A program made the position numbers and the translations under genes. Of a stretch of DNA of 64,000 nucleotides, positions 4,306 to 64,000 are shown one piece after another. The notes under the pieces were generated by a model. The model searched no databases and had not been told where the DNA came from. It saw only the letters and a program-made list of their open reading frames with translations. The stretch spans positions 35,286 through 99,285 of the forward strand of contig JAHJQN010000005.1 in assembly GCA_018819225.1 (NCBI GenBank), given 5' to 3'. Source of the DNA: Candidatus Micrarchaeota archaeon. GTDB lineage: Archaea; Micrarchaeota; Micrarchaeia; Norongarragalinales; SBBD01. Within the stretch, counting starts at the first letter, position 1; the number at the start of each line of letters is the position of its first letter.

Positions 4306-5766
4306 TCATCCTTTGACGACGCCGAGAGGCACCAATCGAGCCACGGGTTTGCTGATTCCCGCCATGTGCACGGCTTTAACGACTTCGTCCACGTCCTTGT
4401 ACGCGCCGCCCGCCTCCTCCGCCAGTGAACGCCAGGAAGTGGCGCGAACCGCCTGCCCTTTTTCCTCCATTTCTTTTTGCAATTGTTCTCCGCGGAAGCT
4501 TCGCAATGCTTGCTTACGGGACATGACCCGCCCGGCTCCATGACACGAACTCCCAAAACTTTCTTTCGCACCAGGAAGGCCGACTAAAACGTAGGAAGCG
4601 GTATTCATGCTTCCGGGAATGATCACGGGTTGGCCGACGTTCCGGTAAGCAGTGGGAATTTCTTTGCGTCCTTTCCAGAACGCACGGGTCGCCCCCTTGC
4701 GGTGGATGCACACTTCCTGCATTTTTCCGTTGACTTCGTGTTCCTCGAATTTGGCGATGTTGTGGCAAACGTCGTACACGAGCTCCATGCCCAAGGACTC
4801 CCACGACTGCTTGAAGACGGATGCAAAGGTTTCGCGGGCCCAATGCGCCATGTAATGGCGATTACAGAATGCATAGTTGATGGCCGCGCGCATTTGTTTC
4901 AAATAATTTTGGGCTTCCGGAGAGGAAACGGGCGCGCAGCATAACTCGGGATCCGGCAAAGAAATGCCGTACTTTTTAGCGGCTTGCAACATGACGCGCA
5001 AGTTGTCGTCGCAAACTTGGTGCCCGAAACCCCGCGAACCCGAGTGAATCATCATGGTAATCTGTCCTTCATGCGTCAAGCCGAACGCCTTCGCGGTTTC
5101 CGCATCATAGATGCGGTCGATTTTCTGCACTTCCGCGAAGTGGTTTCCGCTGCCGAGCGTACCGAACTGGGGTTTGCCGCGCTTGCGCGCCTTATCGGAA
5201 AGCAAGGAAAAATCCGCGCCTTCAAACACGCCGTTTTCCTCGCAATGCTCGGCATCCGCGGGCACCCCAAAACCCTGTTCGATGGGATACTGAACACCGG
5301 CCGTCACCGCCTCCTCAAGTTCTTGTTCCGTTAAGCGGACGCGTCCTTTCGTGCCGACTCCGCACGGAATGTTTTGAAAAAGCCCGTTCACGATTTCCTT
5401 GAGCCTGGGCTTCACATCCTCTTCAGAAAGACTCGTGCGCAGCAAACGCACGCCGCAATTAATGTCGTAACCCACGCCGCCCGGCGAAATCACGCCGTCC
5501 TCCATCGAAAACGCAGCCACGCCTCCAATGGGAAATCCGTATCCTTCATGGCCGTCGGGCATGACTTGAGCGGCCTCTAAAATTCCGGGCAGCTTCGCCA
5601 CATTGGATGCTTGCCAGAGCGTGCGATCCGAATGCAATTTGTTCAGCATTTGAGGCGTGGAATAAACGCGCACGGGAACGCGCATGCCGTCCACTGCAGG
5701 CGCTTCGTATACTCCGTTTCGAATGAGTTTCAAATCCATGAGGTATATCCACCGGTCGCCCATCAT
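4306..5766 (-). CDS. rtcB: RNA-splicing ligase RtcB
   Basis: GSGNHF, HNIAKFEEH, CHGAGR motifs; 486 aa; no intein insertion visible. Confidence 0.9.
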   Translation of the reverse strand: MMGDRWIYLMDLKLIRNGVYEAPAVDGMRVPVRVYSTPQMLNKLHSDRTLWQASNVAKLPGILEAAQVMPDGHEGYGFPIGGVAAFSMEDGVISPGGVGYDINCGVRLLRTSLSEEDVKPRLKEIVNGLFQNIPCGVGTKGRVRLTEQELEEAVTAGVQYPIEQGFGVPADAEHCEENGVFEGADFSLLSDKARKRGKPQFGTLGSGNHFAEVQKIDRIYDAETAKAFGLTHEGQITMMIHSGSRGFGHQVCDDNLRVMLQAAKKYGISLPDPELCCAPVSSPEAQNYLKQMRAAINYAFCNRHYMAHWARETFASVFKQSWESLGMELVYDVCHNIAKFEEHEVNGKMQEVCIHRKGATRAFWKGRKEIPTAYRNVGQPVIIPGSMNTASYVLVGLPGAKESFGSSCHGAGRVMSRKQALRSFRGEQLQKEMEEKGQAVRATSWRSLAEEAGGAYKDVDEVVKAVHMAGISKPVARLVPLGVVKG

Positions 5767-6385: not shown

Positions 6386-6820
6386 CTACGCTTTCTTGAG
6401 TTTAACGCGTTCGAGGATGATGGTGGGCGAGATTTTGGTGACGCCATCCATCACCGAAATTTTCTCGTTGATGAAGCGCGTCACCTCTTCTTGGTTATGC
6501 ATCCACACTTCCATTAGCACCATGTGCTCGCCCGTTGAAGTTGCCAGATACGAGATTTCATTCAAACGGGCAAGCGCCTCCACGACTTTCAAAAACTTGA
6601 GCGGTTCGATATTCAAACCAATAAACGCCACGGAATCGAAACCGATCTTGCGAGGATCTACAATGGCTTGATACTGAAGGATCACGCCTTGTTTTTCAAG
6701 GTTTCGCACGCGATTCCGAACGGTGGCTTCGCTGACATCCAATTCCTCAGCGATCTTGAGGTATCGGACGCGACCATTTGAACGCAACGCCTTGACAATG
6801 CCTTGATCGAGTTCATCCAC
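6386..6820 (-). CDS. lrp: Lrp/AsnC family transcriptional regulator (copy 1)
   Basis: N-terminal HTH (LDxxIVKAL...VSEATVRNRV) and C-terminal RAM domain; about 85% identical to the second copy at 46720-47152. Confidence 0.85.
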   Translation of the reverse strand: MDELDQGIVKALRSNGRVRYLKIAEELDVSEATVRNRVRNLEKQGVILQYQAIVDPRKIGFDSVAFIGLNIEPLKFLKVVEALARLNEISYLATSTGEHMVLMEVWMHNQEEVTRFINEKISVMDGVTKISPTIILERVKLKKA

Positions 6821-6992
6821 GAAGAATACCCAAAGCCCCTACAAATTGCGAATTCCGCAGGGTTGATACTGAATAACGAAAAAATATAAGCATTATTCTG
6901 AATTTCTTCAGAATTATTCTAATTTTCGTCCCGTTTTCCATGAAGATTTACCGGAAATCTTAAAAAAACTATAAAATAAAAAAATTAAAAAT

Positions 6993-7024
6993 ATGAAAAT
7001 GGCACTAAAAAGTGCCAATTTCAT
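6993..7024 (-). terminator. Hairpin plus oligo-T downstream of the secreted-protein gene at 7032-7643
   Basis: 13-bp inverted repeat atgaaaatggcac/gtgccaatttcat followed, in minus orientation, by a T-rich tract. Confidence 0.4.
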
Positions 7025-7031
7025 ACTAAAA

Positions 7032-7643
7032 CTAAGTCAAATCGTACCAAATGTCGTACGCGTTGTAGTTAGGGGTCTTGGCTACAACGATCTCGTAGTT
7101 GATCCGACCGAAGCTGCTAGTAATGAAGTTGCTGAGGTTCGTGCAGAACCCATAGTTCTCCGTTCCCGCACCAGTGGAATCGAAGATGATGGCCGTGCTG
7201 CGCGAGTCCGTTGTGTTTAACACGCGCATGTTCAACGCACTCCCGCACTGTCCGTCGGATGCGGAAGAATCGAAGTGATTCGCGGTCACGTAATATCCCG
7301 TGAGAGAGAAGTTGCCGTCCGTGGTGCTGTTCGTTGAGGCGTTCACGAACGGTTCCGATGGAGTGACGCCGGTCTCAAAGAAGTACAGTACTCCTGAAGA
7401 AACGGGTTTCGTGTACAACACGTTGCCTACGGCGGTATTGTTCCGGACTTGCAGAGTCAAATTTCCGTAGAAACCAACGTACTGCTCCATGCGTCCTGTA
7501 ACGGTCAAGTTGCTGGACGTTCCGTTATCAGTTGGTGCGGCTACGTTCGTGTTATCCGATTGCTGAATGGCAAATACCATGGTCGCAGCAATAGATATTA
7601 AAAACAGAAATACTACGACGAATCTCTTATTTATATTCCTCAT
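7032..7643 (-). CDS. Small secreted N-glycosylation-sequon-rich protein, paralog A of a three-member family
   Basis: Sec-type signal peptide; more than 10 N-x-S/T sequons; 60-75% identical to the ORFs at 45947-46570 and 47403-48005. Confidence 0.7.
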   Translation of the reverse strand: MRNINKRFVVVFLFLISIAATMVFAIQQSDNTNVAAPTDNGTSSNLTVTGRMEQYVGFYGNLTLQVRNNTAVGNVLYTKPVSSGVLYFFETGVTPSEPFVNASTNSTTDGNFSLTGYYVTANHFDSSASDGQCGSALNMRVLNTTDSRSTAIIFDSTGAGTENYGFCTNLSNFITSSFGRINYEIVVAKTPNYNAYDIWYDLT

Positions 7644-7699
7644 TTCCCAACAACACCCCTCGATTTATTGATTTAGATTTAGCATATTCAAAAAAAATA

Positions 7700-7712
7700 T
7701 ACGAAAATCGTA
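7700..7712. promoter_or_regulatory. Inverted-repeat motif TACGA-N3-TCGTA upstream of paralog A (candidate Lrp operator)
   Basis: tacgaaaatcgta, plus a following T-run and about 60 nt of conserved sequence shared with the site at 47333. Confidence 0.45.
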
Positions 7713-7921
7713 ATAATATAGACATATATAAATCTTTCCATTGAGTAAATTAGCTATTATAATAAGAATAAACTAAATCAAATGTGGTTATTACGTTAAA
7801 ATAGGATAAGAATTGGATGTAAAGGGGATTAATGACGCGATGGAATAAATTGAAAGCAAGGACTCAAACGATAAGCTAAAAAGTAATCAAAGGCAATAAG
7901 GAAAGGAGGTGTAAATCGTTC

Positions 7922-9249: not shown

Positions 9250-9280
9250 CGACCTTTTTCAAACAAGGTCGATAAAAAAA
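9250..9280 (-). repeat. tRNA 3'-trailer hairpin motif, copy 1
   Basis: cgacctttttcaaacaaggtcgataaaaaaa; related to the sites at 11085-11112 and 52556-52586. Confidence 0.4.
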
Positions 9281-9300
9281 TCTAGGAGCATTAAAAAAAG

Positions 9301-9420
9301 TGGGGCCGCCGAGATTTGAACTCGGATCGCTGCCACTCCGGCCTTCACGCGCCTTGCAGCTTTTGGCAGAGCGAGGGAAGGTCCCCAAGGCAGTAGGATG
9401 CCAGGTTACCCCACGGCCCC
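9301..9420 (-). tRNA. tRNA-Pro(GGG) with a canonical anticodon-loop intron of about 46 nt
   Basis: Minus strand reads GGGGCCG...CTGCC-TTGGGG-[intron]-GGCAG...CGAGTTCAAATCTCG-GCGGCCCC-A; acceptor, anticodon and T stems all pair. Confidence 0.8.
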
Positions 9421-11084: not shown

Positions 11085-11112
11085 GACTTTTTGATCGACC
11101 TTTTTTGAAAAA
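11085..11112 (+). repeat. tRNA 3'-trailer hairpin motif, copy 2
   Basis: gactttttgatcgaccttttttgaaaaa; a 24-nt identity with 52558-52581. Confidence 0.4.
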
Positions 11113-11161
11113 CATCATTTTCTTTTGGTGAAGCTTTTCTTTTCGAAAGAAAAGGTTCGTA

Positions 11162-11281
11162 TGCAGGGGCGGGGATTTTCATCGTTTTTCTCGAACGGAA
11201 AAAAACGGTTTTGAACCCCGGCATCCTCTACGGAACAGAGACCTCAACCCTGCGCATTTGACCAGACTCTGCCACCCCTGC
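11162..11281 (-). tRNA. tRNA-Leu(GAG) with a non-canonical intron of about 34 nt in the T-loop
   Basis: Minus strand: GCAGGGG-TG-GCA-GAGTCTGGTCAAA-TGC-G-CAGGG-TTGAGGT-CTCTG-long V arm-CGGGG-TTCAAA[intron]T-CCCCG-CCCCTGC-A; all stems pair once the insertion in the T-loop is removed. Confidence 0.65.
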
Positions 11282-14676: not shown

Positions 14677-15152
14677 AGAATGCGAATGACGCGACGCGCT
14701 TGCTCTCTGGAAAGCCCGAAAAACGTGACGGCAACGGATTCCCATTCCCGCGCACTGCGCTCGTCTTCCTTCGCCTGCGGTTCCGATACGAGAACGAACG
14801 CCGCATTCAAGCGCAAGCACAGCGAAAGAAATCGACGGTATTTATAGAGGCGGCGCGCGCGCGGACCGATAGGCAAATGCAACAATGAAGTCAACGGTAA
14901 TTCTATGGAAACCCGTGCTTCCTTGGCGAGTTGAACGAAACCGTTTTCCCGGTGAAATGAAGGCACGCGCGTTGGATTGACGGAGGCCGGATGGCGGCGT
15001 AGGGCTTCTTTCAGCCATTCGATGTGCTCGCTTTCCACGCGCGCGTGAGGGGGTAAGCGATGCACGTCCGCCCGCGATGTTAGAAATATTACACTATTTT
15101 TTTGGTGCACGCCAACCCCTTTTTTTCGCAGCGTCTTCGATGAGTCGCTCAA
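14673..15152 (-). CDS. Hypothetical protein (uncertain)
   Basis: 159-aa ORF, Arg-rich, no recognisable motif; overlaps the next ORF by 58 nt. Confidence 0.3.
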   Translation of the reverse strand: MSDSSKTLRKKGVGVHQKNSVIFLTSRADVHRLPPHARVESEHIEWLKEALRRHPASVNPTRVPSFHRENGFVQLAKEARVSIELPLTSLLHLPIGPRARRLYKYRRFLSLCLRLNAAFVLVSEPQAKEDERSAREWESVAVTFFGLSREQARRVIRIL

Positions 15153-15723
15153 AGGCGCCGTGCCTCATGGATTCAAGCGTATGATGAATTTCGGGATAAA
15201 ACCGCCAATGGTTATGATGCGCCAGCGTTCCCAAAACAGCATTGAAGAAATCGTGAGAGTGCTTTGGACCCATATTCGAAATGATGCTCAATGCTCGCTT
15301 TTTTTGAATAAGAGACCTTTGAGGTTCAAGCAGGGTTCGAAGAGCGGTTCCCGCGAATCGTGCGTCGGGTCCAAAACGTTTTAATGCCCTTTCCGCTTCG
15401 TGCTGCACCTGTTCATTGCCATATAATAAAATCCATCCAGCGCTGAGTGCGAGTCGTTGGTCTCCTAATGCTCGAATGGTGCGCGCTATTCGAACCACTT
15501 CCTCATGCTGGTGGTTGCGAATCATGGGAGCCATTAACCGATTAATCCTTTCATTGACTTGAAGAATACCGTGTTGTTCGATTTCTCCACTCAGAAATTC
15601 TCGTGCATCCGCCAGTATTCTTCCAGTAATCCGGCGGGAATGCAATCGAGAATAGGATGCTTGAAGTCTCTCGGGAAGCTTCCGAATCCCGCTTAACGGT
15701 AAGTCAACAATACGGTCGTCCAT
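15094..15723 (-). CDS. HEAT/PBS-lyase-type repeat protein
   Basis: Repeating helical units with conserved Leu/Ala spacing; 209 aa. Confidence 0.5.
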   Translation of the reverse strand: MDDRIVDLPLSGIRKLPERLQASYSRLHSRRITGRILADAREFLSGEIEQHGILQVNERINRLMAPMIRNHQHEEVVRIARTIRALGDQRLALSAGWILLYGNEQVQHEAERALKRFGPDARFAGTALRTLLEPQRSLIQKKRALSIISNMGPKHSHDFFNAVLGTLAHHNHWRFYPEIHHTLESMRHGAFERLIEDAAKKRGWRAPKK

Positions 15724-15729
15724 AACGCG

Positions 15730-16137
15730 TTATGCGTTGGGGATCTTTAAAATGACTTCGAAATACGCGTGCACGCCGTCCGACCCCACTAAATAGGAAT
15801 TGATGGGCACCATGTTTCGAAAACGTTTCCGCGCCTTTTGTTCCGCGTAATACGACATGGTTCGTCCCGGGTTCTGGAACTTGACGTTGCGGCCCGGCTT
15901 GCGTCCGAGGTCCGCCTTTCTTCGAGCGCGCTTGCCGCGGTGAATTTTCACGCGGGCAATGGCATAGCCCTTCTTCGCCTTGTAGCCTAAACTGCGCGCG
16001 CGGTAGGGGTTGGAAGGCTTTTCCGCCCGCTCAACGGTTTTCTCTTTCCGCCATTTCGCGAGTCGTTTTCGGAACGAGGGAAGGCGTTCGCCGTAGCTCT
16101 TAGAAAAAGAGTCCTGAACATGTCGATAAGCTCCCAT
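15730..16137 (-). CDS. rpl15e: 50S ribosomal protein L15e (eL15)
   Basis: YYAEQKARKR and NSYLV motifs of eL15. Confidence 0.85.
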   Translation of the reverse strand: MGAYRHVQDSFSKSYGERLPSFRKRLAKWRKEKTVERAEKPSNPYRARSLGYKAKKGYAIARVKIHRGKRARRKADLGRKPGRNVKFQNPGRTMSYYAEQKARKRFRNMVPINSYLVGSDGVHAYFEVILKIPNA

Positions 16138-16246
16138 TCTTCATCACCGTATTCTGGTCCCTGCGGATGGCAGGGAAATCCAACATCCATCTACTAGTAC
16201 GCAGGAAGCCATTTTTAACGCTTTTGGGATTGGATGAAGCCCTGCA

Positions 16247-17044
16247 TTAACGCCGGAGCACGCGGCGGAAGATGCGCCACACGCGGCCGAAGAATCCTTC
16301 ACGGGCATGCATGGGTTCCGTGCTCCCCGTAATAATGCCCACGCCTTCCTTGAGAACGCGCGCCGCAGGCGAAGAACCCTTGTAGAGTACGATGGGCGTT
16401 CGGGCGGCAATGCTTTCCGGAATCAAGTGATCTTCCGGAATCGAGAAAATAACAGGGACTTCCGCCATCGTCTCAATTTCCTTATTGGATAACTCGAACG
16501 GGGAACCCGTCGAGCGATTGACGACGATGCCGCGCACGCGCGTCTTCTTGTCCTGGCACAACGAAACCACTTTCGCTGCCGATGTGGAGGAAGGCACATC
16601 CGGCGTCGTGATCACGATGACTTCATCGCACGTCTCCAGAATATATTCGACGTCGGACGTGATACCCGGAGGGGAGTCGACGATGATGTAGTCGTAAGCC
16701 GTCATGCTCCACAACACGTTTTTCAAATTTTTCAAGCTCACGTCCGGATGGTACTTGAGACTCGCCGGAAGCACGCGGATGCCCGTTTGCGGTTGGACGA
16801 CGACGGCTTCCGAAACCTTGTTCTTGCCCTGAAGGACTTCTTGAATTCCAACGGCGCCGTAAGATAACCCGAGGTGGAGTCCAGTCGACGGATTGCTCAA
16901 ATCGCAATCGACGATAATGGAATTGCGGCCCATGCGCTTGAGAATCGCCGTCGTATTGACGGCTACAACGCTTTTTCCAACGCCTCCTTTACCGGATACG
17001 ACCCCGATAATCTTATTCTTACGATTAGTGTTTGCAGCTGGCAT
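16247..17044 (-). CDS. minD: MinD/ParA-type P-loop ATPase
   Basis: Deviant Walker A GKGGVGKS; 265 aa. Confidence 0.85.
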   Translation of the reverse strand: MPAANTNRKNKIIGVVSGKGGVGKSVVAVNTTAILKRMGRNSIIVDCDLSNPSTGLHLGLSYGAVGIQEVLQGKNKVSEAVVVQPQTGIRVLPASLKYHPDVSLKNLKNVLWSMTAYDYIIVDSPPGITSDVEYILETCDEVIVITTPDVPSSTSAAKVVSLCQDKKTRVRGIVVNRSTGSPFELSNKEIETMAEVPVIFSIPEDHLIPESIAARTPIVLYKGSSPAARVLKEGVGIITGSTEPMHAREGFFGRVWRIFRRVLRR

Positions 17045-20496: not shown

Positions 20497-23400
20497 CTAT
20501 TGTGATGCGGTGGCGTTGTGAGTAATTTCCACCCACTCGGCCATGCCTCCGCTGACGCCGCTGAAATCAGCCCAGCACCATAACTGTTCCCCTTCGCCCG
20601 TTGGAACCGTCGTATTCACGAGGAACGGATCCGCCGCACTCGTATTGGTATTAATGGTGTGAGAGCTTCCGTAACCTGCGCCGGAATTGTGACATTTGAG
20701 GGTCACCCCCGTTGGAGGCGTTGCATTCAAGTAAATACTCCAATTGAGATTTGCATCCCCCGTATTATTGAAAATAAAGAACGGATTATCATTGTTTTGA
20801 CAATTCGCGGTATATCCGACGCATGGATGCACCTCCGTTTGATCGCCCGTCAAACTCGTGAAGTTCATGTCCAAGGTAAATGCAGGCGTGTAGTTGATGT
20901 GCAAGGCTGGTTTATTATTTAGTGAGTGGTTTGCAGAAGAGATCACAAAACGTTCTGTTCCTGAATCGGGCACAGATACCGCACCGAAGATGGAAATCCA
21001 TTCCGGGTGATTCAATATTTGGGCATGGGCGATCGCTGGATCCAACGTGAAGTTCTTGTAACCGGTACTCTCGAATAATGCGGCAGTGGAATTCCAGGTA
21101 TTCGAAGCATCATTAGAATGCATGGCTTTACAAGATATTAACTGCACGCGACTGACAACATGACCACCCAAAAGTCCATTGTTTTCTCCTGGATTGGTAG
21201 CAGTGGAAACATATAATTCTGCTAGAATTTCATTGAAAATAATTCCGGATCCATTCGTTAATCCGGTTTCAAAATCCATATGCCATTTTCCGGATGCCCC
21301 TATCCCAAGGGTTTGGTTGGCTTCAATCAATTCATCTCCTTCCGGCGTACAAGCCGCATTTCCTGCATTTCCATACTCTGCAATATCAAAACTGGGGTAA
21401 ACCGCTATAGTTCGAGAATAGTTCGCAGTAGAACCAACGGCTCCCCTTCCGGGAATCGTTAACGTAAACGATGTGACGGCTGGCACGGTCCAAGGCATAC
21501 GGATGTGCACCTCGCGGTTCGTGCTCAACGTGATGTTTCGAATCGATGAATTGTCGGTATAACCCGGCGAACTGGCATTGAAGTAATGAGGCGTGTAATC
21601 CGTTTGCGTGTTCGTTCCGTCCGGCGCGTTGACGATCGTAAAAGCAGTGAGGGTCTGCCAAGGAGTCATTCCGTTCGAGTCCGTGGTGATTCCCGTGAGC
21701 ATTTCCGTGCCAGACGTGTAATTGGTGATCGAAACCGTGGCGCCGTTCATGGGATCGTCGGTCACGTTGGTGACATTCACCAACAAAAACCATTGCCGCG
21801 TGTAATTGTTTTCATTTCCCCCGAACGTGACCAGGAGGTCATCAAACGAACTGTTGCGGAACACGTGGCCTTGCGAACCGCTGGAGAGGAATAAATCCTT
21901 GTTCTGCGTGTCACGGATGGTGTTGTTGATCCACAGGCTGTTGTTGGAGGCCACGATATGGATGCTGTTGTTGGAATGGTTTTGAATCGTGTTGTTCGTG
22001 AAATTGTTGAAATCGGAGTTGATGATCCTCACGCCCCGCGGTCCTCCCGTAAAGTTGTTGTTCTCGACGACGTGGTCGGTACGCGTTCCCGCAGAAACGG
22101 ACCAAATACCTAATGCTTCCCCGTAACCGTCGCCATTATCTTTCATTTCCTCCACTGTATTGTTCCGAACGACGCACCACGCATTGTCGCCGGTCCCCTC
22201 GTAACCCAGCGCCATGCCGTACGGAGACTGGTTGACGTAATTGTTTTCTATCGTGCAGTTATCGGAGTGGCCGTAGAAGAGGACGGAAAAATCAGCTCCT
22301 GACGGCGTGTGAACCGTGTTGTTTCGGAAAATGGTGTTGTTGGACGAGTCCTTGATTTGGATGGCTCCATAACCCTGCGTGCTGAAATTGTTGTTTCGGA
22401 TGGTCGTATCGTATGCGAACGAAGCCAATACGCCATGCCGATATCCGTAAAAGGAACAGTTCGCGACGTCGGTTTCGTTAAAGTTTGTAATCGATACATG
22501 CGTTCCAACGCGTCCTACTCGGCTGATCGTATGGCCGTCGCAGTCGAGCGTCAACGTATTTGCCGCGATGGTGAAACAGGATCCGGGGGGGGCCGTCAGG
22601 TCGTTGTTCAACAAGACGCTTTGTTTAATGGTTCCGCAACTCCCGTTTACAATCGCCGTAAAATTGTTTTTGTCAGTATCCGTTAAACCCCACTCGTCGG
22701 ATCCGATGCAATTCCAGATGTATTTATTCGGAGGCAACCCAAAAACATTAAACGCGGTATTCGTCGCATTCTGTAAACCCGTAGCGCTCGTATTCGAGAA
22801 GTTGGCGGCCCAAACTCCGGAAAAGTTGCCCCATAACGTTAGATTTTGAGGAGTTCCGGTGTCCACATCGATACTGCAGTTGAACGTAACCATCGCTTGG
22901 GCACTGCTGGAAACCGTGGTATTATCGGTCGCAGGACTAATCAATACCACGTCAGGGGGCTCGGAGTAATTGACATATAGATAAACCTGCGATAACGCAT
23001 CTTGGGAAGAGATGGGATCCCGATCCTTACGATCTTCATCCTTGATGCCAAATCCGAAGAAATTAGTTCCAAGTCCATTTTCCATGTCCGTATGAGCTGC
23101 GTCTATAAGGGTATAATTCGTCCACTGTAACCCTGGAACCGAAGCCACTCCGGTATGATAAATAGTCGAAGAATTCACGTAATCCCACGGCGAATCCGAA
23201 CTACCGCAGGAAAAACTGGATAACGGTTTGTTGATCGCGCGAATGGTATGGTTACTCGCATGAACAGTATTCCAGTACAACGAAGCCGTGATGTTGAAAA
23301 TTTGTGCAGTACCTGGAATGCTGGTGGTGTCCCAGTCAATTGCAGGCCGGTAATCAATATCGTTATAATAGGTTGCAGTCGCATTCGTGCACGAAGTACT

Positions 23401-25056
23401 CGTAAGATTTCCTACGATAAGAGAAAAAGCGCTGTCGACAGCACAACCGTAATAATTGTCGACAGTCGTACAACCAATACCCGAATAATTTATGGTGCGC
23501 CAGAACGTGGTATCGTTATTGTTTTCAGCAGCGGCATATCGCACAAACGGATCCAAGAATAACTGTTTGCCTTGCAAATTGGAGATGCGCAGCTCCGTTT
23601 GATTCGTCATCGAGAGCGAAAAGCCTTCCTCAATCAAGTCGTTGAAATCCAAAACGATATCGCCCGGTAACATGATGGAATGATCCTCGACGTAAACCGT
23701 GCTCCAATCCATTTCATCCGATGAGAGCCGTAATCCGATGGACTGAATCTTGTCGTGAATGGGTTGCGGCGAATCCCGGAAATCCAAAGCGAACTTCGGA
23801 TGTTTTTCGTTGCGCACCTGACCGCGGAAGTTAACCCCTAATCCCTGCTTGATTTCGTGAACGCTTTGATCGCGATTCTCGAATACGATGAAGGGATCCA
23901 GTTTCACCGTGTAATTGGGGGCTTGCAGTTGGAAGTGCGGGTTTTCCCACGTAAACGAAATGTATTCGTTGAAGCCCATCCACTTTCCGAAGAAGAACAC
24001 GTTGACGGGTTTCTGATACAAAATCGCGGTCTTGTATCCGTTGCCGCTTTCGATCACGTCCGCTTTCGCGCCAACGGCTTTCCCCGTCACCGGCAAGTCG
24101 GATTCGAATAATTTGACTCCGCGCGGTTCAATTAATGCGGGAACAAGTGTGGGCATAGGAGTGGCATTTGCGGTGGGCGACGCGCTAACAGATGGCGTGG
24201 GGGTCATCGTGGCGTTCGGGGTTGGAGTCATGGTCGCGTTTGGAGTCGGCGTGGGAGCCGGTGTGGAAAACGAATACCCGTCTTCCCGCGAGCAGTTTTC
24301 AGAATTACAGCTTTCAACTGAGAAGAAATACTGCGTGGATGCCAGGAGACTGGAAAGGGTTAGCGAATGCGTTTGCACGAGCGAGGAATCCGATTCAATG
24401 AGACTGAGATCGATGTCTTGACCGTAATAGACCGTGGAATTCGCGGGCTGGTCGGTATCCCAGGAGATGAGCGCGCTGCTGGTTTGGGGTTCTGCAGTCA
24501 CATTATCGATGATGGGAAAATCAGGGTAAGGCGTTGCCGTAGGCGTTGGAGTCGGAGTCGCTTCCAATTCGCAGGCGGTAGCGCAACACGTGCCGGAGTC
24601 GGAAGCATTGAGCCATTGATCGCCAGGACAAATTTCTCCCTCTAAACAAATCGTTCCGTTTTGTTCCGCGCAAGTCGGTTCAGGGGTCGGAGTCGGTTCT
24701 TCCGTGGGAGTAGGTGTCGGGGATTCGCAGGCAACCGCACAACACAAACCGGTATCCGAAGCGTTGAGCCATTGATCGCCAGGACAAATTTCTTCCTCAG
24801 AACAAACGAACCCTCCTTGTTCCGCGCACGTGGGATCGGGAGTGGGCGTGGGCGCTTCAGTTGCAGTAGGAGTAGGGGTTTCCGTTGGAGTCGGCGTAGG
24901 AGTAGCAGTAGGAGTAGGCGTTTCCGTTGGAGAAGGAGTAGGGGTGGGCGTAGGATCGTCGGCCCCGGCAACCGCAGCCAGTAAAAAGACAATAACCACT
25001 AACAATCCAATGTTCGCGAGCAGGAAACTCCCACGGAAACGGGAGGGAAACGGCAT
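20497..25056 (-). CDS. Giant surface protein (1519 aa): signal peptide, PT-repeat linkers, two 6-Cys modules, right-handed beta-helix region
   Basis: TPTPTP linkers; duplicated CAEQxGxxCxExEICPGDQWLNASDxGxCCAxACE module; many N-rich pseudo-repeats (NNN[FT]xxxxxG) as in PbH1/pectate-lyase-like folds; more than 100 N-x-S/T sequons. Confidence 0.8.
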   Translation of the reverse strand: MPFPSRFRGSFLLANIGLLVVIVFLLAAVAGADDPTPTPTPSPTETPTPTATPTPTPTETPTPTATEAPTPTPDPTCAEQGGFVCSEEEICPGDQWLNASDTGLCCAVACESPTPTPTEEPTPTPEPTCAEQNGTICLEGEICPGDQWLNASDSGTCCATACELEATPTPTPTATPYPDFPIIDNVTAEPQTSSALISWDTDQPANSTVYYGQDIDLSLIESDSSLVQTHSLTLSSLLASTQYFFSVESCNSENCSREDGYSFSTPAPTPTPNATMTPTPNATMTPTPSVSASPTANATPMPTLVPALIEPRGVKLFESDLPVTGKAVGAKADVIESGNGYKTAILYQKPVNVFFFGKWMGFNEYISFTWENPHFQLQAPNYTVKLDPFIVFENRDQSVHEIKQGLGVNFRGQVRNEKHPKFALDFRDSPQPIHDKIQSIGLRLSSDEMDWSTVYVEDHSIMLPGDIVLDFNDLIEEGFSLSMTNQTELRISNLQGKQLFLDPFVRYAAAENNNDTTFWRTINYSGIGCTTVDNYYGCAVDSAFSLIVGNLTSTSCTNATATYYNDIDYRPAIDWDTTSIPGTAQIFNITASLYWNTVHASNHTIRAINKPLSSFSCGSSDSPWDYVNSSTIYHTGVASVPGLQWTNYTLIDAAHTDMENGLGTNFFGFGIKDEDRKDRDPISSQDALSQVYLYVNYSEPPDVVLISPATDNTTVSSSAQAMVTFNCSIDVDTGTPQNLTLWGNFSGVWAANFSNTSATGLQNATNTAFNVFGLPPNKYIWNCIGSDEWGLTDTDKNNFTAIVNGSCGTIKQSVLLNNDLTAPPGSCFTIAANTLTLDCDGHTISRVGRVGTHVSITNFNETDVANCSFYGYRHGVLASFAYDTTIRNNNFSTQGYGAIQIKDSSNNTIFRNNTVHTPSGADFSVLFYGHSDNCTIENNYVNQSPYGMALGYEGTGDNAWCVVRNNTVEEMKDNGDGYGEALGIWSVSAGTRTDHVVENNNFTGGPRGVRIINSDFNNFTNNTIQNHSNNSIHIVASNNSLWINNTIRDTQNKDLFLSSGSQGHVFRNSSFDDLLVTFGGNENNYTRQWFLLVNVTNVTDDPMNGATVSITNYTSGTEMLTGITTDSNGMTPWQTLTAFTIVNAPDGTNTQTDYTPHYFNASSPGYTDNSSIRNITLSTNREVHIRMPWTVPAVTSFTLTIPGRGAVGSTANYSRTIAVYPSFDIAEYGNAGNAACTPEGDELIEANQTLGIGASGKWHMDFETGLTNGSGIIFNEILAELYVSTATNPGENNGLLGGHVVSRVQLISCKAMHSNDASNTWNSTAALFESTGYKNFTLDPAIAHAQILNHPEWISIFGAVSVPDSGTERFVISSANHSLNNKPALHINYTPAFTLDMNFTSLTGDQTEVHPCVGYTANCQNNDNPFFIFNNTGDANLNWSIYLNATPPTGVTLKCHNSGAGYGSSHTINTNTSAADPFLVNTTVPTGEGEQLWCWADFSGVSGGMAEWVEITHNATASQ

Positions 25057-45946: not shown

Positions 45947-46570
45947 GTGATTGAGTTGCGTCCCACCCGCATACTCGCATTAGGTTTAATAGTCGCTGGC
46001 GTCATGTCGGTAATTGTCTACGCGGCAGTCGAACAATCGGATAACACGAATGTTGCGGTGCCAACAAATAACGGAACTTCCACCAACCTATCGGTTGCCG
46101 GACGAATGCAGCAATACGTTGGCTTCTACGGAAACATGAGCTACCAGGTCCGTAATGATACGACGGTAGGCAACATTCTGTACCAGAAAACCGTTACTCA
46201 AGGAGTGCTCTATTTCTTCAAAAATGGCGCTACTCCAACGGAACCGTTCGTGAACGCCTCGACGAACAGCACCACGGATACCAATTTCTCGCTCACGGGG
46301 TATTATGTGACCGGAAACCATTTCGATACGAACGCGTCTGATGGACAATGCGCGTCCAATCTGGATCTGAAGGTATTGAATACCACAGATGGCCGAAGCA
46401 CGGCCATTCTATTTGATTCATCAACAGCTGGCACGGAGAATTACCTCTTCTGCACCAACATCAGTTCGTTCACGTCAACAAACGGATTCGGTACCATCAA
46501 CTACGAGATCGTGGTGGCCAAGACGCCAACGTATATGGCGTATGACATCTGGCACGACTTAACCACCTGA
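45947..46570 (+). CDS. Small secreted sequon-rich protein, paralog B (GTG start)
   Basis: Signal peptide; shared VEQSDNTNVA(A/V)PT(D/N)NGTS mature N-terminus and conserved core with paralogs A and C. Confidence 0.7.
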   Translation: MIELRPTRILALGLIVAGVMSVIVYAAVEQSDNTNVAVPTNNGTSTNLSVAGRMQQYVGFYGNMSYQVRNDTTVGNILYQKTVTQGVLYFFKNGATPTEPFVNASTNSTTDTNFSLTGYYVTGNHFDTNASDGQCASNLDLKVLNTTDGRSTAILFDSSTAGTENYLFCTNISSFTSTNGFGTINYEIVVAKTPTYMAYDIWHDLTT

Positions 46571-46582
46571 TGCGAAAAATAT

Positions 46583-46610
46583 GAAAATCAATACGATTTT
46601 CGTATTTTTT
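46583..46610 (+). terminator. Hairpin plus oligo-T downstream of paralog B; overlaps the TACGATTTTCGTA motif (46592-46604)
   Basis: gaaaatc-aatac-gattttc followed by gtatttttt. Confidence 0.4.
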
Positions 46611-46719
46611 ACTAACCTTTTTCGTTTTTATTTTTTTAGGATTCGCAAAGAAGAGCTTGTGAAGCCCGTTGTTTGGAAGGCTCGCCGGAAAAAACCCACG
46701 TGAGGAGGAAAGGAATAGT

Positions 46720-47152
46720 GGATGAGCTTGACCTCAAAATTGTTCGGCGCCTGCAGGCCGATGGAAGGATTCGCTTCCTCAAGCTAGCGAAAGAGCTGGA
46801 CGTCAGTGAAGGGACCATTCGCAAGCGCGTTCAAATCCTCGAGGACAAGAAAGTCGTTATTCAATACTCCGCAATCGTGGATCCCCGCAAGATCGGTTTT
46901 GATTCCGTGGCGTTTATTGGTTTGAATATTGAACCGCTCAAGTTTCTGAAGGTCGTGGAAGCGCTCTCGCGATTGGAGGAACTCTCGTACTTGGCAACGG
47001 CAACAGGAGAGCACATGGTGCTTATGGAGGTGTGGATGCGTAACCAAGAAGAGATCACGCGCTTCATCAATGAAAAAATTTCGGTCATGGACGGCGTAAA
47101 TAAAATTTCGCCCACCATCATCCTCGAACGCGTCAAGCTTAAGCATAAATAA
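46720..47152 (+). CDS. lrp: Lrp/AsnC family transcriptional regulator (copy 2, GTG start)
   Basis: About 85% identical to copy 1; start inferred by alignment with copy 1 (VDELDLKIV versus MDELDQGIV). Confidence 0.85.
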
Positions 47153-47164
47153 TGCGCATCGGCC

Positions 47165-47205
47165 GGCCCCTTGCTCCAAAACCCCTCTTCTTCTTTTGAG
47201 GGGCC
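47165..47205 (+). terminator. GC-rich nested hairpin downstream of lrp copy 2
   Basis: ggcccc...cccctc-ttcttctttt-gagggg...ggggcc. Confidence 0.3.
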
Positions 47206-47332
47206 GCTTGAACTGATAGGCGAAGCCCCCTTCAAAATCAAGAGCTTCTTCGAATACACTACAATGCATTTCACTAAGTCTAATAGCAATTATGGTATTC
47301 ATAACCAAAAGCTTTAAATATATCAATATTAT

Positions 47333-47345
47333 TACGATTTTCGTA
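47333..47345. promoter_or_regulatory. TACGATTTTCGTA inverted-repeat motif upstream of paralog C
   Basis: Same motif plus about 60 nt of flanking similarity as upstream of paralog A. Confidence 0.45.
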
Positions 47346-47402
47346 TATTTTTCTTGAATATACTAAATTAAATTCAATAAATATAGGGGTGCTTGTAAAT
47401 AA

Positions 47403-48005
47403 ATGAAAAACAATCGAGTATTTTTCGTCGCCATATTACTAATAACCGGATCATTTATGGTTTATGCGGTTCAACAGTCCGATAATACGAATGTAGCCGC
47501 ACCAACTGATAACGGAACGTCCAGCAACTTGACCGTTACAGGACGCATGGAGCAGTACGTTGGATTCTACGGCAATTTGACGATGCAAGTCCGGAACAAT
47601 ACCGCCGTAGGCAACGTGTTGTACACGAAACCCGTTTCTCAAGGCGTACTGTACTTCTTTGAGACCGGCGTCACTCCATCGGAACCGTTCGTGAACGCCT
47701 CGACGAACAGCACCACGGACGGCAACTTCTCTCTCACGGGATATTACGTGACCGCGAATCACTTCGATTCTTCCGCATCCGACGGACAGTGCGGGAGTGC
47801 GTTGAACATGCGCGTGTTAAACACAACGGACTCGCGCAGTACGGCTATTATCTATGATTCAACGGGCGCGGGAACGGAGAAGTACGGATTCTGCACGAAC
47901 CTCAGCAACTTCGCCACTACCAGCTTCGGTCGGATCAACTACCAAGTCGTTGTGGCAAAAACAGCAGGCTACAATGCATATGACATATGGTTCGATTTGA
48001 CATAG
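47403..48005 (+). CDS. Small secreted sequon-rich protein, paralog C
   Basis: About 90% identical to paralog A over the mature region. Confidence 0.7.
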   Translation: MKNNRVFFVAILLITGSFMVYAVQQSDNTNVAAPTDNGTSSNLTVTGRMEQYVGFYGNLTMQVRNNTAVGNVLYTKPVSQGVLYFFETGVTPSEPFVNASTNSTTDGNFSLTGYYVTANHFDSSASDGQCGSALNMRVLNTTDSRSTAIIYDSTGAGTEKYGFCTNLSNFATTSFGRINYQVVVAKTAGYNAYDIWFDLT

Positions 48006-48013
48006 AACTAGGA

Positions 48014-48070
48014 AGAAAATAGCGCATATTTCTTTTGTTTTTTATATTTTTTATTTTATTTTTCTTATTT
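48014..48070 (+). terminator. Hairpin plus long T-tract downstream of paralog C
   Basis: agaaaatagcgcatatttct then a T-rich run. Confidence 0.35.
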
Positions 48071-52474: not shown

Positions 52475-52547
52475 GGGGCTGTGGGGTAACCTGGTATCCT
52501 GCTAGCTTCGGGAGCTAGTGATCTGAGTTCAAATCTCAGCAGCCCCA
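52475..52547 (+). tRNA. tRNA-Pro(CGG), intron-less
   Basis: GGGGCTG acceptor; anticodon stem CTAGC/GCTAG with loop TTCGGGA; T-arm CTGAG-TTCAAAT-CTCAG; CCA not encoded. Confidence 0.85.
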
Positions 52548-52555
52548 CTCTCACG

Positions 52556-52586
52556 ATTTTTGATCGACCTTTTTGAAAAGGTCGGT
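52556..52586 (+). repeat. tRNA 3'-trailer hairpin motif, copy 3
   Basis: gatttttgatcgacctttttgaaaaggtcgg (cgacctttt/aaaaggtcg stem); followed at 52592-52611 by a 19-nt repeat of the tRNA 3' end. Confidence 0.45.
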
Positions 52587-52656
52587 TGCCAAAACTCAGC
52601 AGCCCCACTACTTCTTTGGTCGACCCTCACAATATAAAAAAGCAGTATGAATTACG

Positions 52657-61240: not shown

Positions 61241-62203
61241 TTTTAAGCTAAATACTTAACCTGCGCGAATTTGCGATTTGCGTAGCTGGTTGCTGTAGTC
61301 CCGGCGAATCGAAGCTCGTGCTATGACCGATTCCTTGAGCGGTCCCTTGATCTATGATAGGGCGTATTACGCTCCATTCCACTACAGCGGCCGATGGGAA
61401 TGTGAGCAATCGTTTTGAATCACGATTCACGTTCGACGGACGCGGACCTCAACGCCAAAATAAATCGTTTAGTTCTTTGCGACTCGTAATTCGCAATCAG
61501 TTAAATTCAGTACGGATTGCACACGCGCTCTTCCGAGAGGGAGAGTGGCGTGTAACACCAGTTGATCCTGCTGGAGGATATTGCTATCAGAATTCGACTA
61601 AGCCATGCAAGTCAGTGTTACCACCTGGTAACACGGCGAACGGCTCAGTAACGCGTACTTAACTTACCCTAGGCAGGCGAATAACTTCGGGAAACTGAAG
61701 GGAATACGCCGTAGGAAACAATTTCTGGAACGAAGTGTTTCTTAAAGTGCTCCGAATTGTAGGAGTTACGGCCTAGGATGGGAGTGCGTCTGATTAGGCT
61801 GTTGGTGGGGTAAAGGCCCACCAAACCGATAATCAGTAGGAGCTATGGGAGTAGAAGCTCCGAGATGGGCACTGAGACAAGGGCCCAAGCCCTACGGGGT
61901 GCAGCAGGCGCGAAATTTCCGCAATGCGCGCAAGCGTGACGGGGGAATTCTGAGTGCTTCTCTTACGAGAAGCTTTTGCTTAGCTTGAATCGCTAGGCGA
62001 ATAAGGAGTGGGTAAATCCTGTGCCAGCCGCCGCGGTAATACAGGTAGTCCAAGTGATATCCACGAATACTGAGTCTAAAGCGCTCGTAGCGGGTTCGGC
62101 AAGTTCTCTGTGAAATCTTCAAGCTCAACTTGAAGGCGTGCAGGGAATACTACCAGACTTGGGAGTGGGGGAGGCCAAGGGTACTTTAGGGGGAGGAGTA
62201 AAA

Positions 62204-62260
62204 CGACCTTTTCTTTCAAAAAGAAAAGCTCGACCAAAAGAAATCGACATGTCGTACTCA
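62204..62260 (+). repeat. 57-nt palindromic insertion inside 16S (between GGAGTAAAA and TCCTGTAATCC); a copy of the element next to tRNA-Leu
   Basis: cgaccttttctttcaaaaagaaaagctcgaccaaaagaaatcga... versus 11113-11160 (rc) acgaaccttttctttcgaaaagaaaagcttcaccaaaagaaaatga... Confidence 0.5.
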
Positions 62261-62477
62261 AAATCCTGTAATCCTTAAAGGACCTTCAGTAGCGAAGGCG
62301 CTTGGCCAAAACACGTCCGACCGTGAGGAGCGAAGGCCAGGGGAGCAAATCGGATTAGATACCCGAGTAGTCCTGGCAGTAAATGATGCAGACTAGGCAT
62401 TGCAATGGTTTCGAACTGTTGCAGGGCCGTAGGGAAGCTGATAAGTCTGCCACTTGGGGAGTACGGTCGCAAGACTT

Positions 62478-62518
<41 letters not shown>

Positions 62519-63061
62519 TGCTGCGGTTCAATTGGACTCAACGCCGGGAAACTCACCAGGAGAGACAGCAGAATGAAGCTCAGGCTAAAGACCTTAGCTG
62601 ACAAGCTGAGAGGTGTTGCATGGCCAGCGTCAGTTCGTGCCGTGAGGTGTCAAGTTAAGTCTTGCAACGAACGAGATCTTCATCCACAGTTGCCAGTTTC
62701 GCGGTAACGCGGAGCGCACTCTGTGGAAACTGCCTGCGTTAAGTAGGAGGAAGGAGAAGGCGACGCTAGGTCTGTATGGCCCGAATCTCCTGGGCCACAC
62801 GTGGCATACAATGGCGGAGACAATGGGTTCCGACGCCGAAAGGCGAAGGTAATCTCCGAAACTCCGTCTAAGTCCGGATTGGGGGCTGAAACTCGTCCCC
62901 ATGAAGCTGGAATCCCTAGTAATCGCGTGTCATCATCGCGCGGTGAATATGTCCCCGCTCCTTGCACACACCGCCCGTCAAGTCAACCAAGCGAGGCTTT
63001 AGTGAGGCTTGGTCTTCGGATCAAGTCGAGCTAGAACTTTGTAAGGTGGATTAAGTCGTAA

Positions 63062-63830
63062 GAACGTTGCGACCTCGGATCTGTGAGGATTTGAGAAAAA
63101 ATCTGCTATATGCTGGAAACCCCGAGCATCTCAGGCTACCATCGGAAACGACGCTTCGGAATGAATATCATTCTCGAAGAAATTCAGTTGGTGAAAATGT
63201 TTTGAGTGCGGGCAATCAGCAGGGAAGTCGGCGCGAAAGCGCTTGACCCCTCAGAGACTACACGCAGACTTCTATAGTGCAAGAGAACATGAAGGCATAT
63301 CTCCTTGGCGCGCTACACGATGGCTCCAATCACGGTAACACGTACCGAATCGTCCAAAAAGAAGAAGAATACGTCCGCTGGATTGCGGATGAACTTCATC
63401 AAATGGGCATTTCGGCATGGGTTTATCGGGAAGGAGCTGAACGACATTTATTCGTCGTCGAGTTCTCGAAAAGTCGGTTATCGGAAATCAAGATCAATAG
63501 TCTTGAAGAGAAAACTGAATACATTCGAGGATACTTCGATGCCGAAGGTAGCGTACCATTGAAATCGGGAGCCAGAATGTACATTTATTTCTGCCAAAAA
63601 GACCGAAAGGATCTGGAAGAAGTAAAAACATTCTTGGAAGAACTTGGAATCGTTTGTGGAAAAACCCACAATCCAACGTTCAAAGAACCTGATTATTGGA
63701 GATTCTTCATTGGATGTAAATCCTACAAAGCATTTGCATCTAAAATTGGTTCTCGCCATCCTCGAAAGAGGAAAGTACTCGAGAAGATGATATAGTCCAT
63801 GCCGCGCAGCGATGCGTGGAAGAACATGAA
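63062..63830 (+). mobile_element. 16S rRNA intron near the 3' end (after AAGTCGTAA), carrying a homing endonuclease ORF
   Basis: The 16S consensus AAGTCGTAACAAGGTAGCCGTAGGGGAACC is restored when 63062-63830 is removed. Confidence 0.8.
63277..63795 (+). CDS. LAGLIDADG-family homing endonuclease (double-motif, monomeric type)
   Basis: YLLGALHDGS (motif 1) and IRGYFDAEGS (motif 2) roughly 95 aa apart; 172 aa. Confidence 0.85.
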   Translation: MQENMKAYLLGALHDGSNHGNTYRIVQKEEEYVRWIADELHQMGISAWVYREGAERHLFVVEFSKSRLSEIKINSLEEKTEYIRGYFDAEGSVPLKSGARMYIYFCQKDRKDLEEVKTFLEELGIVCGKTHNPTFKEPDYWRFFIGCKSYKAFASKIGSRHPRKRKVLEKMI

Positions 63831-63969: not shown

Positions 63970-64000
63970 GGGCTCGTGGCGCAGTGGTAGCGCGCCTGCT
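63970..64000 (+). tRNA. 5' part of a spacer tRNA (probably tRNA-Ala), truncated by the window end
   Basis: GGGCTCG-TG-GCGC-AGTGGTA-GCGC-G-CCTGC...; in the position of the archaeal 16S-23S spacer tRNA-Ala; anticodon not reached. Confidence 0.5.

Follow-up and report, generated by a model that had tools for sequence, protein, structure and literature searches.

The question raised by this locus is how one short hairpin can come to lie both beside a tRNA gene and inside an rRNA gene. In a 64 000-nt stretch of contig JAHJQN010000005.1 from a Candidatus Micrarchaeota archaeon, hereafter the window, a sequence of about 45 nt directly 3' of a tRNA-Leu gene recurs within an insertion that interrupts the 16S rRNA gene. 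A first interpretation, made from the letters alone (the sequence-only reading), had suggested a mobile miniature hairpin element or a micro-intron. The comparisons described here suggest that the two copies are members of a module repeated among DPANN archaea, that the 16S copy forms the body of a bulge–helix–bulge (BHB) intron, and that this intron has a tRNA-type origin. Taken as a whole, this interpretation is regarded as probable.

Two copies of a module in the window

The similarity between the tRNA-Leu flank and the 16S insert is real. A repeat search of the window aligned 38 nt of copy A (11119-11156, minus strand) with copy B (62206-62243, plus strand) at 92 % identity, and pairwise alignment over ~45 nt gave ~83–85 % identity with a single 1-nt gap. 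The window contains the 24-nt core CCTTTTCTTTCRAAAAGAAAAGCT exactly two times, whereas chance produced no match in 100 dinucleotide-preserving shuffles (expected number 0.00). R1, the covariance model of the family that was used to score module copies, recovers copies A and B from the window and no other full copy.

Copy B extends over 62204-62243 on the plus strand (R1 score 60.0 bits, E=8.5e-12). Its lower stem (62204-62206 with 62230-62232) is separated by a C·C mismatch (62207/62229) from an upper stem (62208-62216 with 62220-62228) closed by a loop at 62217-62219, and a linker, ACC, leads to a tail, AAAAGAAA, at 62236-62243. The same parts are found in copy A, at 11119-11158 on the minus strand (58.2 bits, E=2.2e-11), with the lower stem at 11158-11156/11132-11130, the C·C mismatch at 11155/11133, the upper stem at 11154-11146/11142-11134, the loop at 11145-11143, the linker ACC and the tail at 11126-11119. 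The element had been described as palindromic; it is not a simple palindrome, because a purine mirror tail, which the sequence-only reading had overlooked, follows the hairpin.

Copy A lies in the 3' trailer of tRNA-Leu(GAG), a 120-nt gene at 11162-11281 (minus strand) that had been correctly placed beside the hairpin. This gene was read from the sequence together with a BHB scan. ARAGORN missed it, with or without its intron mode, because of a 34-nt T-loop (59/60) intron at 11176-11209 (minus strand), which has a relaxed hBH motif in which the central helix H is UUCA/UGAA and the outer helix h is the T-stem. The sequence-only reading had not noticed this intron, which may preserve the module in a decayed form in its hairpin, CGUUUUU.../...AAAAACG, and the AUGAAAA that comes next. 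Since copy A starts only 3 nt past the discriminator base, it would be lost with the 3' trailer on trimming of the tRNA by RNase Z. The tRNA-Leu copy is a trailer element and not an intron.

A putative micro-intron in the 690 loop

The gene that contains copy B is an archaeal 16S rRNA gene at 61555-63107 (plus strand), matching the Rfam model SSU_rRNA_archaea over its full length with 1365 bits. Alignment to the model reveals 61 extra nt in a hairpin loop, GGA-GUAAA(61 nt)UCC, and a BHB scan predicts a 60-nt intron at 62202-62261 (plus strand), in the loop of the helix-23 '690' hairpin. The insertion is therefore 60–61 nt long and not 57 nt, as had been read. The frame of the intron can shift within the flanking A runs without change to the product. 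The 690 loop is a universally conserved functional loop of 16S rRNA, not a variable region.

In the predicted motif, all of it on the plus strand, the exon strand GAGU (62196-62199) pairs with ACUC at the 3' end of the intron (62256-62259) as the central helix H. The first bulge, B1, AAA at 62200-62202, holds the predicted 5' splice site, and the second, B2, AAA at 62260-62262, holds the predicted 3' splice site, while ACGAC (62203-62207) and GUCGU (62251-62255) form the inner helix h'. An unconstrained minimum free energy fold of 62170-62300 already contains the 4-bp H, a 3-nt AAA bulge and the 5-bp h'. B2 was identified by the BHB scan; there is no outer helix after it (h=0), so the motif is of the relaxed HBh' type. 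BHB prediction at the 16S junctions had been proposed in the sequence-only reading. When a 4-bp helix with a bulge 3' of each strand was required, the scan returned a sole candidate that spares the rRNA: H GAGU/ACUC, B1 AAA, B2 AAA, h' of 5 bp and h of 0 bp. A motif first drawn by hand, with H = CGAC/GUCG and bulges 5' of each strand, was rejected; it is wrongly handed and would leave 15 extra nt in the rRNA.

Cuts after the second base of each bulge take out exactly 60 nt and give the junction GAGUAA/AAUCC. The sequence predicted after ligation, GAGGAGTAAAATCCTGTAATCC, was found without interruption in 15 JGI metagenome contigs whose 16S genes are 78–88 % identical to that of the window, which indicates that GUAAAA is the native loop of the lineage and that precise excision restores it. 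The tRNA-splicing endonuclease would cut both AAA bulges, and the RNA ligase RtcB would then join the exons to give GGAGUAAAAUCC, so that the expected junction in spliced 16S rRNA is GAGUAAAAUCC. A gene for RtcB, the expected joiner of the exons, lies at 4306-5766 (minus strand; Pfam PF01139 RtcB, on the called gene at 14922-16382 of locus L001; loci are numbered with the prefix L).

The 60 nt of the intron contain no endonuclease open reading frame (ORF), the nearest LAGLIDADG ORF being ~1 kb downstream in the spacer. The ACGAC...GUCGU ends of the 16S copy, with the flanking AAA runs, have the appearance of a terminal inverted repeat with a target-site duplication. Copy A is without such ends, and BHB geometry explains them equally well, which makes them ambiguous as features of a transposon of the miniature inverted-repeat type. 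Judging from its structure and from the comparison with intron-less relatives, whose exact junction its removal restores, the 16S insert is very probably a spliced BHB intron, and for this copy the suggestion of a micro-intron is supported.

A family in many DPANN lineages

The family was searched for with the pattern CCTTTTCTTTCNAAAAGAAAAG, in which the 21-nt core had to match exactly, in one genome per GTDB species. The further copies whose existence the sequence-only reading had named as a test are present: 64 loci in the GTDB representative genomes contain the core, 43 of them archaeal, and several genomes have two or three such loci. The archaeal loci are labelled Micrarchaeota, Iainarchaeum, Woese-, Aenigm-, Alti- or Nanoarchaeota, or simply 'uncultured archaeon'. 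Within these 8-kb loci, R1 detects many additional copies, which have diverged, in the other genomes. One subtype, CGACC...CUCGACC, is shared with JAJRVP01 and JAGGYW01. Copies A and B almost certainly belong to this one widespread family.

The contexts of the copies were established by detection of upstream tRNAs and by eye. About 14 copies are T-loop 59/60 introns, the most frequent of the tRNA intron positions, and about seven begin 1–6 nt after the 3' end of a tRNA, as copy A does. Others form introns in the D-loop or the anticodon loop, and the remainder lie in spacers. Approximately 30 copies have the same sense as the tRNA or rRNA that hosts them. Where the module is part of an intron, it is always situated at the 5' end, with the 5' splice site a few bases ahead of the lower stem. 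One copy is located in the 23S gene of an Aenigmatarchaeota metagenome-assembled genome (MAG; L034); here, reading by eye gives H = GUCC/GGAU with 3-nt bulges and restoration of GAGUCCAUAUCGACGG, a solution outside the top candidates of the automated BHB scan. In two related 16S genes, an insert of ~88 nt carries the module in antisense, in a hairpin loop at approximately E. coli position 374 (L081, 887-975, plus strand; the same on the other strand in L077).

No Rfam family matches the module at the gathering threshold, and relaxing the cut-off to E<=10 yields no meaningful match. A box C/D or H/ACA small RNA was considered and rejected, the boxes being absent from copy B and a C-box-like AUGAUGU being present in copy A only. 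A single match in 2.9 million viral contigs led us to reject an origin from a virus or plasmid. Literature searches, both by topic and with sequence strings, did not bring up any account of such a conserved intron module.

Bacterial copies (GTCCTTTTCTTTTAGAAAGAAAAGGACCAAAAGAAATCGG...) in L006, L027 and L051 (Fidelibacterota) and in L029 and L064 (unclassified bacteria) are followed by a conserved region of ~130 nt, which has long-range helices and a shared UCAGACAUA stretch and resembles a larger unannotated non-coding RNA. No Rfam family matched this region, and the bacterial copies, in Fidelibacterota and others, have no neighbouring gene in common.

A hairpin followed by its mirror image

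The module consists of a hairpin of 13–15 bp, with a variable lower stem of 3–5 bp, the C·C mismatch and an upper stem CUUUUCUUU/AAAGAAAAG. A short linker leads to the purine tail AAAAGAAA, in which the hairpin's 3' strand is repeated as a mirror image. The tail was not part of the search pattern, yet it is found in 46 of the 64 oriented core matches, 4–22 nt past the hairpin. In an alignment of 44 copies (A2), the three lower-stem pairs below the C·C mismatch are kept in 37 of 42 sequences and include all four Watson–Crick types. Their covariation score is 0.238, against 0.059 for shuffled sequences; none of 500 shuffles reached 0.238, and the score drops when the partners are slid.

Where the hairpin varies, the tail changes in step: it mirrors the 3' strand and does not copy it. 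The 3' strand AAAGAAAAA is accompanied by the tail AAAAAGAAA in L062, and GAAAGAAAAA by AAAAAGAAAG in L081. In L018 the 3' strand is AAAAGAAAGAA and the tail AAGAAAGAAAA, and in L054 the 3' strand is AAGAAAGAAAA and the tail AAAAGAAAGAA. In the trailer of the tRNA-Ala gene of the window genome, AAAAAGAAAA is followed by AAAAGAAAAA. Perfect mirrors of 10–11 nt are present in L054, L074, L081, L030 and L018. A model-free scan took in all pyrimidine/purine hairpins in the fetched DNA, with the upstream side of each as control: a near-full-length mirror lies downstream of 58 hairpins, against 6–7 in the control, and among hairpins with a tail the mirror fits better in 34, a direct repeat in nine, with 21 ties.

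Two other pairings for the tail were tried. Watson–Crick pairing with the pyrimidine strand would make the tail a direct repeat of the 3' strand, and the mirror fits the asymmetric variants better; the near mirror symmetry of the core nevertheless leaves this model some likelihood. A second hairpin (P2) that would enclose the tail averages 2.80 bp, no better than the 2.45 bp obtained with shuffled partners.

A class II potential intrastrand triplex has a pyrimidine tract, a purine tract and a mirror purine tract in succession on one strand (PMC4666352). The order CUUUUCUUU, AAAGAAAAG, AAAAGAAA has this layout. The first two form the Watson–Crick hairpin and the third mirrors the second, giving A·A-T and G·G-C triads, and the mirror is kept in independent variants of the core. 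As the non-template strand has the sequence of the RNA, such a triplex would be possible at the level of DNA in highly transcribed genes. In the copies antisense to their host, those of L081 and L077 and the bacterial L044, the RNA would have the pyrimidine-motif layout, which is one that RNA can form. We tentatively propose that a three-stranded fold is what selection maintains, a possibility that the mirror pattern of the sequences raises and that we would not yet put at even chances.

A possible history of the 16S intron

The first 44 nt of the 16S intron are identical at 42 positions to the T-loop intron L048_2774. This intron comes from an archaeon whose ribosomal proteins are only 35–59 % identical to those of the window; of the fetched loci, that of a Micrarchaeota MAG has the ribosomal proteins that match best (S11, 77 % identical). 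The target in 16S rRNA, ...GUAAA/AUCC, resembles that in the T-loop, ...UCAAA/AUCC. Because of the near-identity to a T-loop intron and the T-loop-like site, an ectopically moved intron of the tRNA T-loop type appears to be the most likely history of the 16S intron. Both copies in the window would then descend from a family that lives mainly in tRNA introns, especially at T-loop 59/60, and in tRNA 3' flanks. An intron of the T-loop type would have moved ectopically into the T-loop-like hairpin of 16S rRNA, where it would have survived since it was spliceable there, its 3' end ACUC matching the new exon sequence GAGU.

Variation between lineages is seen at an orthologous gene, the tRNA-Leu(GAG) downstream of rpoD, in which the position of the module differs. 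The window has the module in the 3' trailer of this gene, and a Micrarchaeota MAG (L054) has it in both a canonical and a T-loop intron. In L023, from another archaeon, the module occupies an anticodon-loop intron, and a further, variant copy is found in an insert close to the 5' end of the tRNA. Another tRNA gene of the window, tRNA-Pro(CGG), has a duplicated 3' end. Its last 15 nt, CTCAGCAGCCCCACT at 52535-52549 (plus strand), are repeated exactly 60 nt downstream at 52595-52609 (plus strand), and the duplicates flank a 45-nt insert, 52550-52594, in which there is a hairpin of related type, GATCGACCTTTTTGAAAAGGTCG. An insertion or a recombination event may have left this footprint, or a T-loop intron may have turned into a trailer. 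Duplicated tRNA fragments also flank modules in L012 and L023, and their presence at such inserts suggests rearrangement of DNA.

The suggestion of a mobile element is thus supported by the occurrence of the module in more than 40 places among DPANN archaea, at differing tRNA and rRNA positions, and by the near-identical T-loop intron of a distant archaeon. With moderate confidence, we favour spread of the family by movement between sites. A more speculative proposal, which we consider rather unlikely, is that the module is the core of a previously unrecognized class of mobile introns without an endonuclease, in which the three-stranded fold provokes breaks or template switching and hence copying into T-loop-like sites. 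Where tRNA and rRNA genes are highly transcribed, the fold would form on their non-template DNA strand, or else, for antisense copies, at the level of RNA. Insertions would survive where their ends happen to form a BHB motif. If true, this would explain the spread of non-coding archaeal introns between genes, between positions and between distant DPANN lineages.

Alternative explanations

Several observations weigh against the interpretation of the element as a repeated DPANN module that forms the body of a 16S intron and derives from tRNA introns. The 16S BHB motif lacks the outer helix and would therefore need an endonuclease of broad specificity, and a gene for the splicing endonuclease was not located in the 64-kb window or the fetched flanks. 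In addition, the h' helix and the lower stem of the module compete for the same three bases, 62204-62206. The invariance of the core is partly an effect of ascertainment, as every member was found through an exact match to 21 nt. A few copies are antisense to the host RNA, namely the 16S mini-intron of L081 and L077 and a bacterial copy, L044, and some carriers of the module are bacteria, which are without BHB splicing. The element has no link to a transposase, a homing endonuclease or a reverse transcriptase that would supply a mechanism of mobility. With regard to the triplex, the first loop is 3 nt, and the second connector, of 4–22 nt including the 3' strand of the lower stem (7–20 nt when given as a loop with its stem), is longer than published definitions permit, 1–6 nt (ITxF) or 0–10 nt (Hoyne et al.) (PMC4666352). 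Purine-motif triplexes are moreover reported not to form in all-RNA strands (PMC4666352, introduction).

Both copies are made of purine and pyrimidine tracts, which are common in A/T-rich spacers, and their similarity might be a chance likeness of low-complexity A/T-rich hairpins. The shuffles that yielded no match, the family-model scores of 58–60 bits and the conservation of a tail independent of the search pattern already refute this explanation, the probability of which is negligible. Given a real similarity, the insert might instead be retained in mature 16S rRNA as an expansion segment at helix 23 that is peculiar to this lineage, with a common structural or protein-binding hairpin as the reason for its likeness to the tRNA flank. 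It is located at the tip of a hairpin, sterically the easiest place for expansions, and the rRNA genes of DPANN archaea and of the candidate phyla radiation are known for many insertions. However, the insert lies in the conserved 690 loop, and 15 related 16S genes have this loop without interruption; the helix of 4 bp and the two 3-nt bulges are correctly handed, and cutting at them restores the exact native loop; and elsewhere the same module is found in obvious tRNA introns, removal of which is obligatory for folding of the tRNA. Retention of the insert is accordingly considered very unlikely.

The module may also be a functional RNA or processing signal that is kept by the host, either as a stable small RNA from introns and trailers or as a fast-folding insulator that aids the BHB motif. 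This would agree with the ~30 sense copies in host tRNA and rRNA, with a 5' end that always lies a few nucleotides from a processing site (the 5' splice site or the RNase Z site), with the strong covariation of the hairpin and with conservation of the core across several phyla. We nevertheless judge it improbable, if worth keeping in view, as no known RNA family in Rfam matches and C/D and H/ACA boxes are lacking; the mirror covariation of the tail fits a purine-motif triplex, reported for DNA and not for RNA (PMC4666352); antisense copies exist, and copy number and position vary between orthologous genes; and the duplicated tRNA fragments around some inserts point to rearrangement of DNA. A signal at the DNA level, for instance one that binds a protein or that terminates transcription at oligo-T in both directions, present in 16S as a tolerated accident, might account for the T-rich runs on both strands (T6CT5 in the variant after tRNA-Ala) and for the many copies that immediately follow tRNA genes, the expected place of terminators in archaea. 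However, essential transcripts would be cut short if a terminator lay in tRNA introns and in the one 16S gene that is visible. The lower stem shows the covariation of a hairpin, the tail shows that of a mirror and not of a fixed binding site, and the hairpin and tail are 4 to 22 nt apart, depending on the copy. There is thus little likelihood of such a signal.

Other stable-RNA genes and repeats

Relaxed BHB introns of the hBH type are used by other stable RNAs of the same genome, in tRNA-Leu and tRNA-Ala. The tRNA-Ala(UGC) gene is cut by the end of the window (63970-64000 and beyond; L067 16497-16652) and has a T-loop 59/60 intron of 36–37 nt, with H = UUCA/UGAA and the T-stem as h; Rfam matches this gene only in part. 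Directly after it, 80 nt past the end of the window, R1 identifies the variant module mentioned above, a T6CT5 hairpin with its mirror tail. The tRNA-Pro(GGG) gene at 9300-9420 (minus strand) has a canonical intron of 47 nt and was found by ARAGORN in intron mode only. Downstream of tRNA-Ala, the 23S gene (L067 16827-20558) is ~745 nt longer than the model and holds a second LAGLIDADG ORF.

The first LAGLIDADG ORF is free-standing, in the spacer between 16S and tRNA-Ala (LAGLIDADG_3 homing endonuclease, 63289-63795, plus strand; L067 15816-16322). Its homologues, ~62 % identical, are in L073, L077 and L081, loci which hold 16S genes with large insertions. Insertions of ~650–750 nt are found in the 16S genes of the relatives L068, L070, L074, L077 and L081, at three other positions (~747, ~890 and ~1163 of the spliced window 16S), and are presumably endonuclease-bearing introns.

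A second small hairpin family, ATCGACCTT(T/G)TTTGAAAA(AGGTCG), is present at 9256-9273 (minus strand), 11094-11111 (plus strand) and 52563-52580 (plus strand). It adjoins all three window tRNA genes, with four matches against 0.31 expected, and has a CGACC...GGTCG foot in common with the main module. Inverted duplications of 0.3–0.6 kb with 77–87 % identity link 6395-7737 and 46034-48070, ~40 kb apart; they are in stretches of lower GC content and include paralogous ORFs of ~200 aa. Tandem imperfect repeats at 24529-24955 are inside an ORF of 1519 aa (20497-25056, minus strand), which has weak NosD/beta-helix Pfam matches and probably encodes a repetitive surface protein.

Significance and comparison with known systems

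The route by which small archaeal introns without an ORF reach new positions and genes is the wider question to which the module is relevant. It represents a concrete and recognizable intron body in many places: several tRNA positions, tRNA trailers, the 23S gene and the functionally critical 690 loop of 16S. Because it spans several DPANN phyla and is near-identical in distant organisms, it may serve as a traceable marker of intron gain and loss, and because the mirror tail obeys the pairing rules of a triplex, it offers a defined candidate structure that is testable. In practical terms, such inserts break tRNA finders, as with the tRNA-Leu missed by ARAGORN, and interfere with surveys of DPANN archaea that rely on 16S.

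Short hairpin-forming BHB introns of 16S rRNA have been described in Thermoproteales and Desulfurococcales at 13 listed loci: 374, 548, 722, 781, 803, 901, 908, 919, 978, 1093, 1205, 1213 and 1391 (Jay & Inskeep 2015, PMC4496867). Like these, the window intron is small, non-coding, bounded by a BHB motif and without a homing endonuclease, and its removal by the tRNA-splicing endonuclease and RtcB is expected. It differs in its host, a DPANN-type archaeon and not a crenarchaeon; in its site, the 690 loop being outside the 13 loci; in its relaxed motif (HBh'); and in its body, a conserved module common to tRNA introns and trailers. The insert of L081 and L077 at ~374, in contrast, coincides with a known Thermoproteales intron locus (PMC4496867).

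The epsilon2 endonuclease of the micrarchaeon ARMAN-2 has been shown experimentally to cut relaxed hBH introns at tRNA 59/60 (Fujishima 2011, PMC3239211), and the relaxed HBh' form of the motif is accepted only by (alpha-beta)2 or epsilon2 enzymes (PMC3239211). The tRNA-Leu and tRNA-Ala introns of the window genome are exactly of this 59/60 type, as are many copies of the family. That account includes no conserved intron module and no rRNA copy, whereas here the same body is found in 16S, in 23S and outside introns.

Transposition of introns between tRNA genes has been proposed for Thermoproteales, in work cited in PMC3239211. In comparison with that proposal, the module family spans several phyla, reaches rRNA genes and tRNA 3' flanks, and has a defined, co-varying structure of hairpin plus mirror tail. 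Fujishima and colleagues reportedly observed in 2010 that related introns occupy differing positions of differing tRNA genes, which was read as gain by transposition.

The BoxC/PIT/TMECO repeats of Enterobacteria and E. coli are dispersed and multi-copy, have no known function and are tied to local rearrangements (Hoyne 2000; Holder 2015, PMC4666352). The module has an identical order of domains and is likewise dispersed, and duplicated tRNA fragments flank some of its inserts. The bacterial repeats are G/C-rich, whereas the module is A/T-rich, with A·A-T triads and one G·G-C triad; it is also archaeal, mostly sense and inside transcribed stable-RNA genes, and its second loop is long and includes a co-varying stem. 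Taken together, these comparisons place the 16S intron within a known kind of intron, in a new lineage and at a new site, the 690 loop. What appears to be new is a module that links BHB introns, tRNA trailers and repeats of the triplex type.

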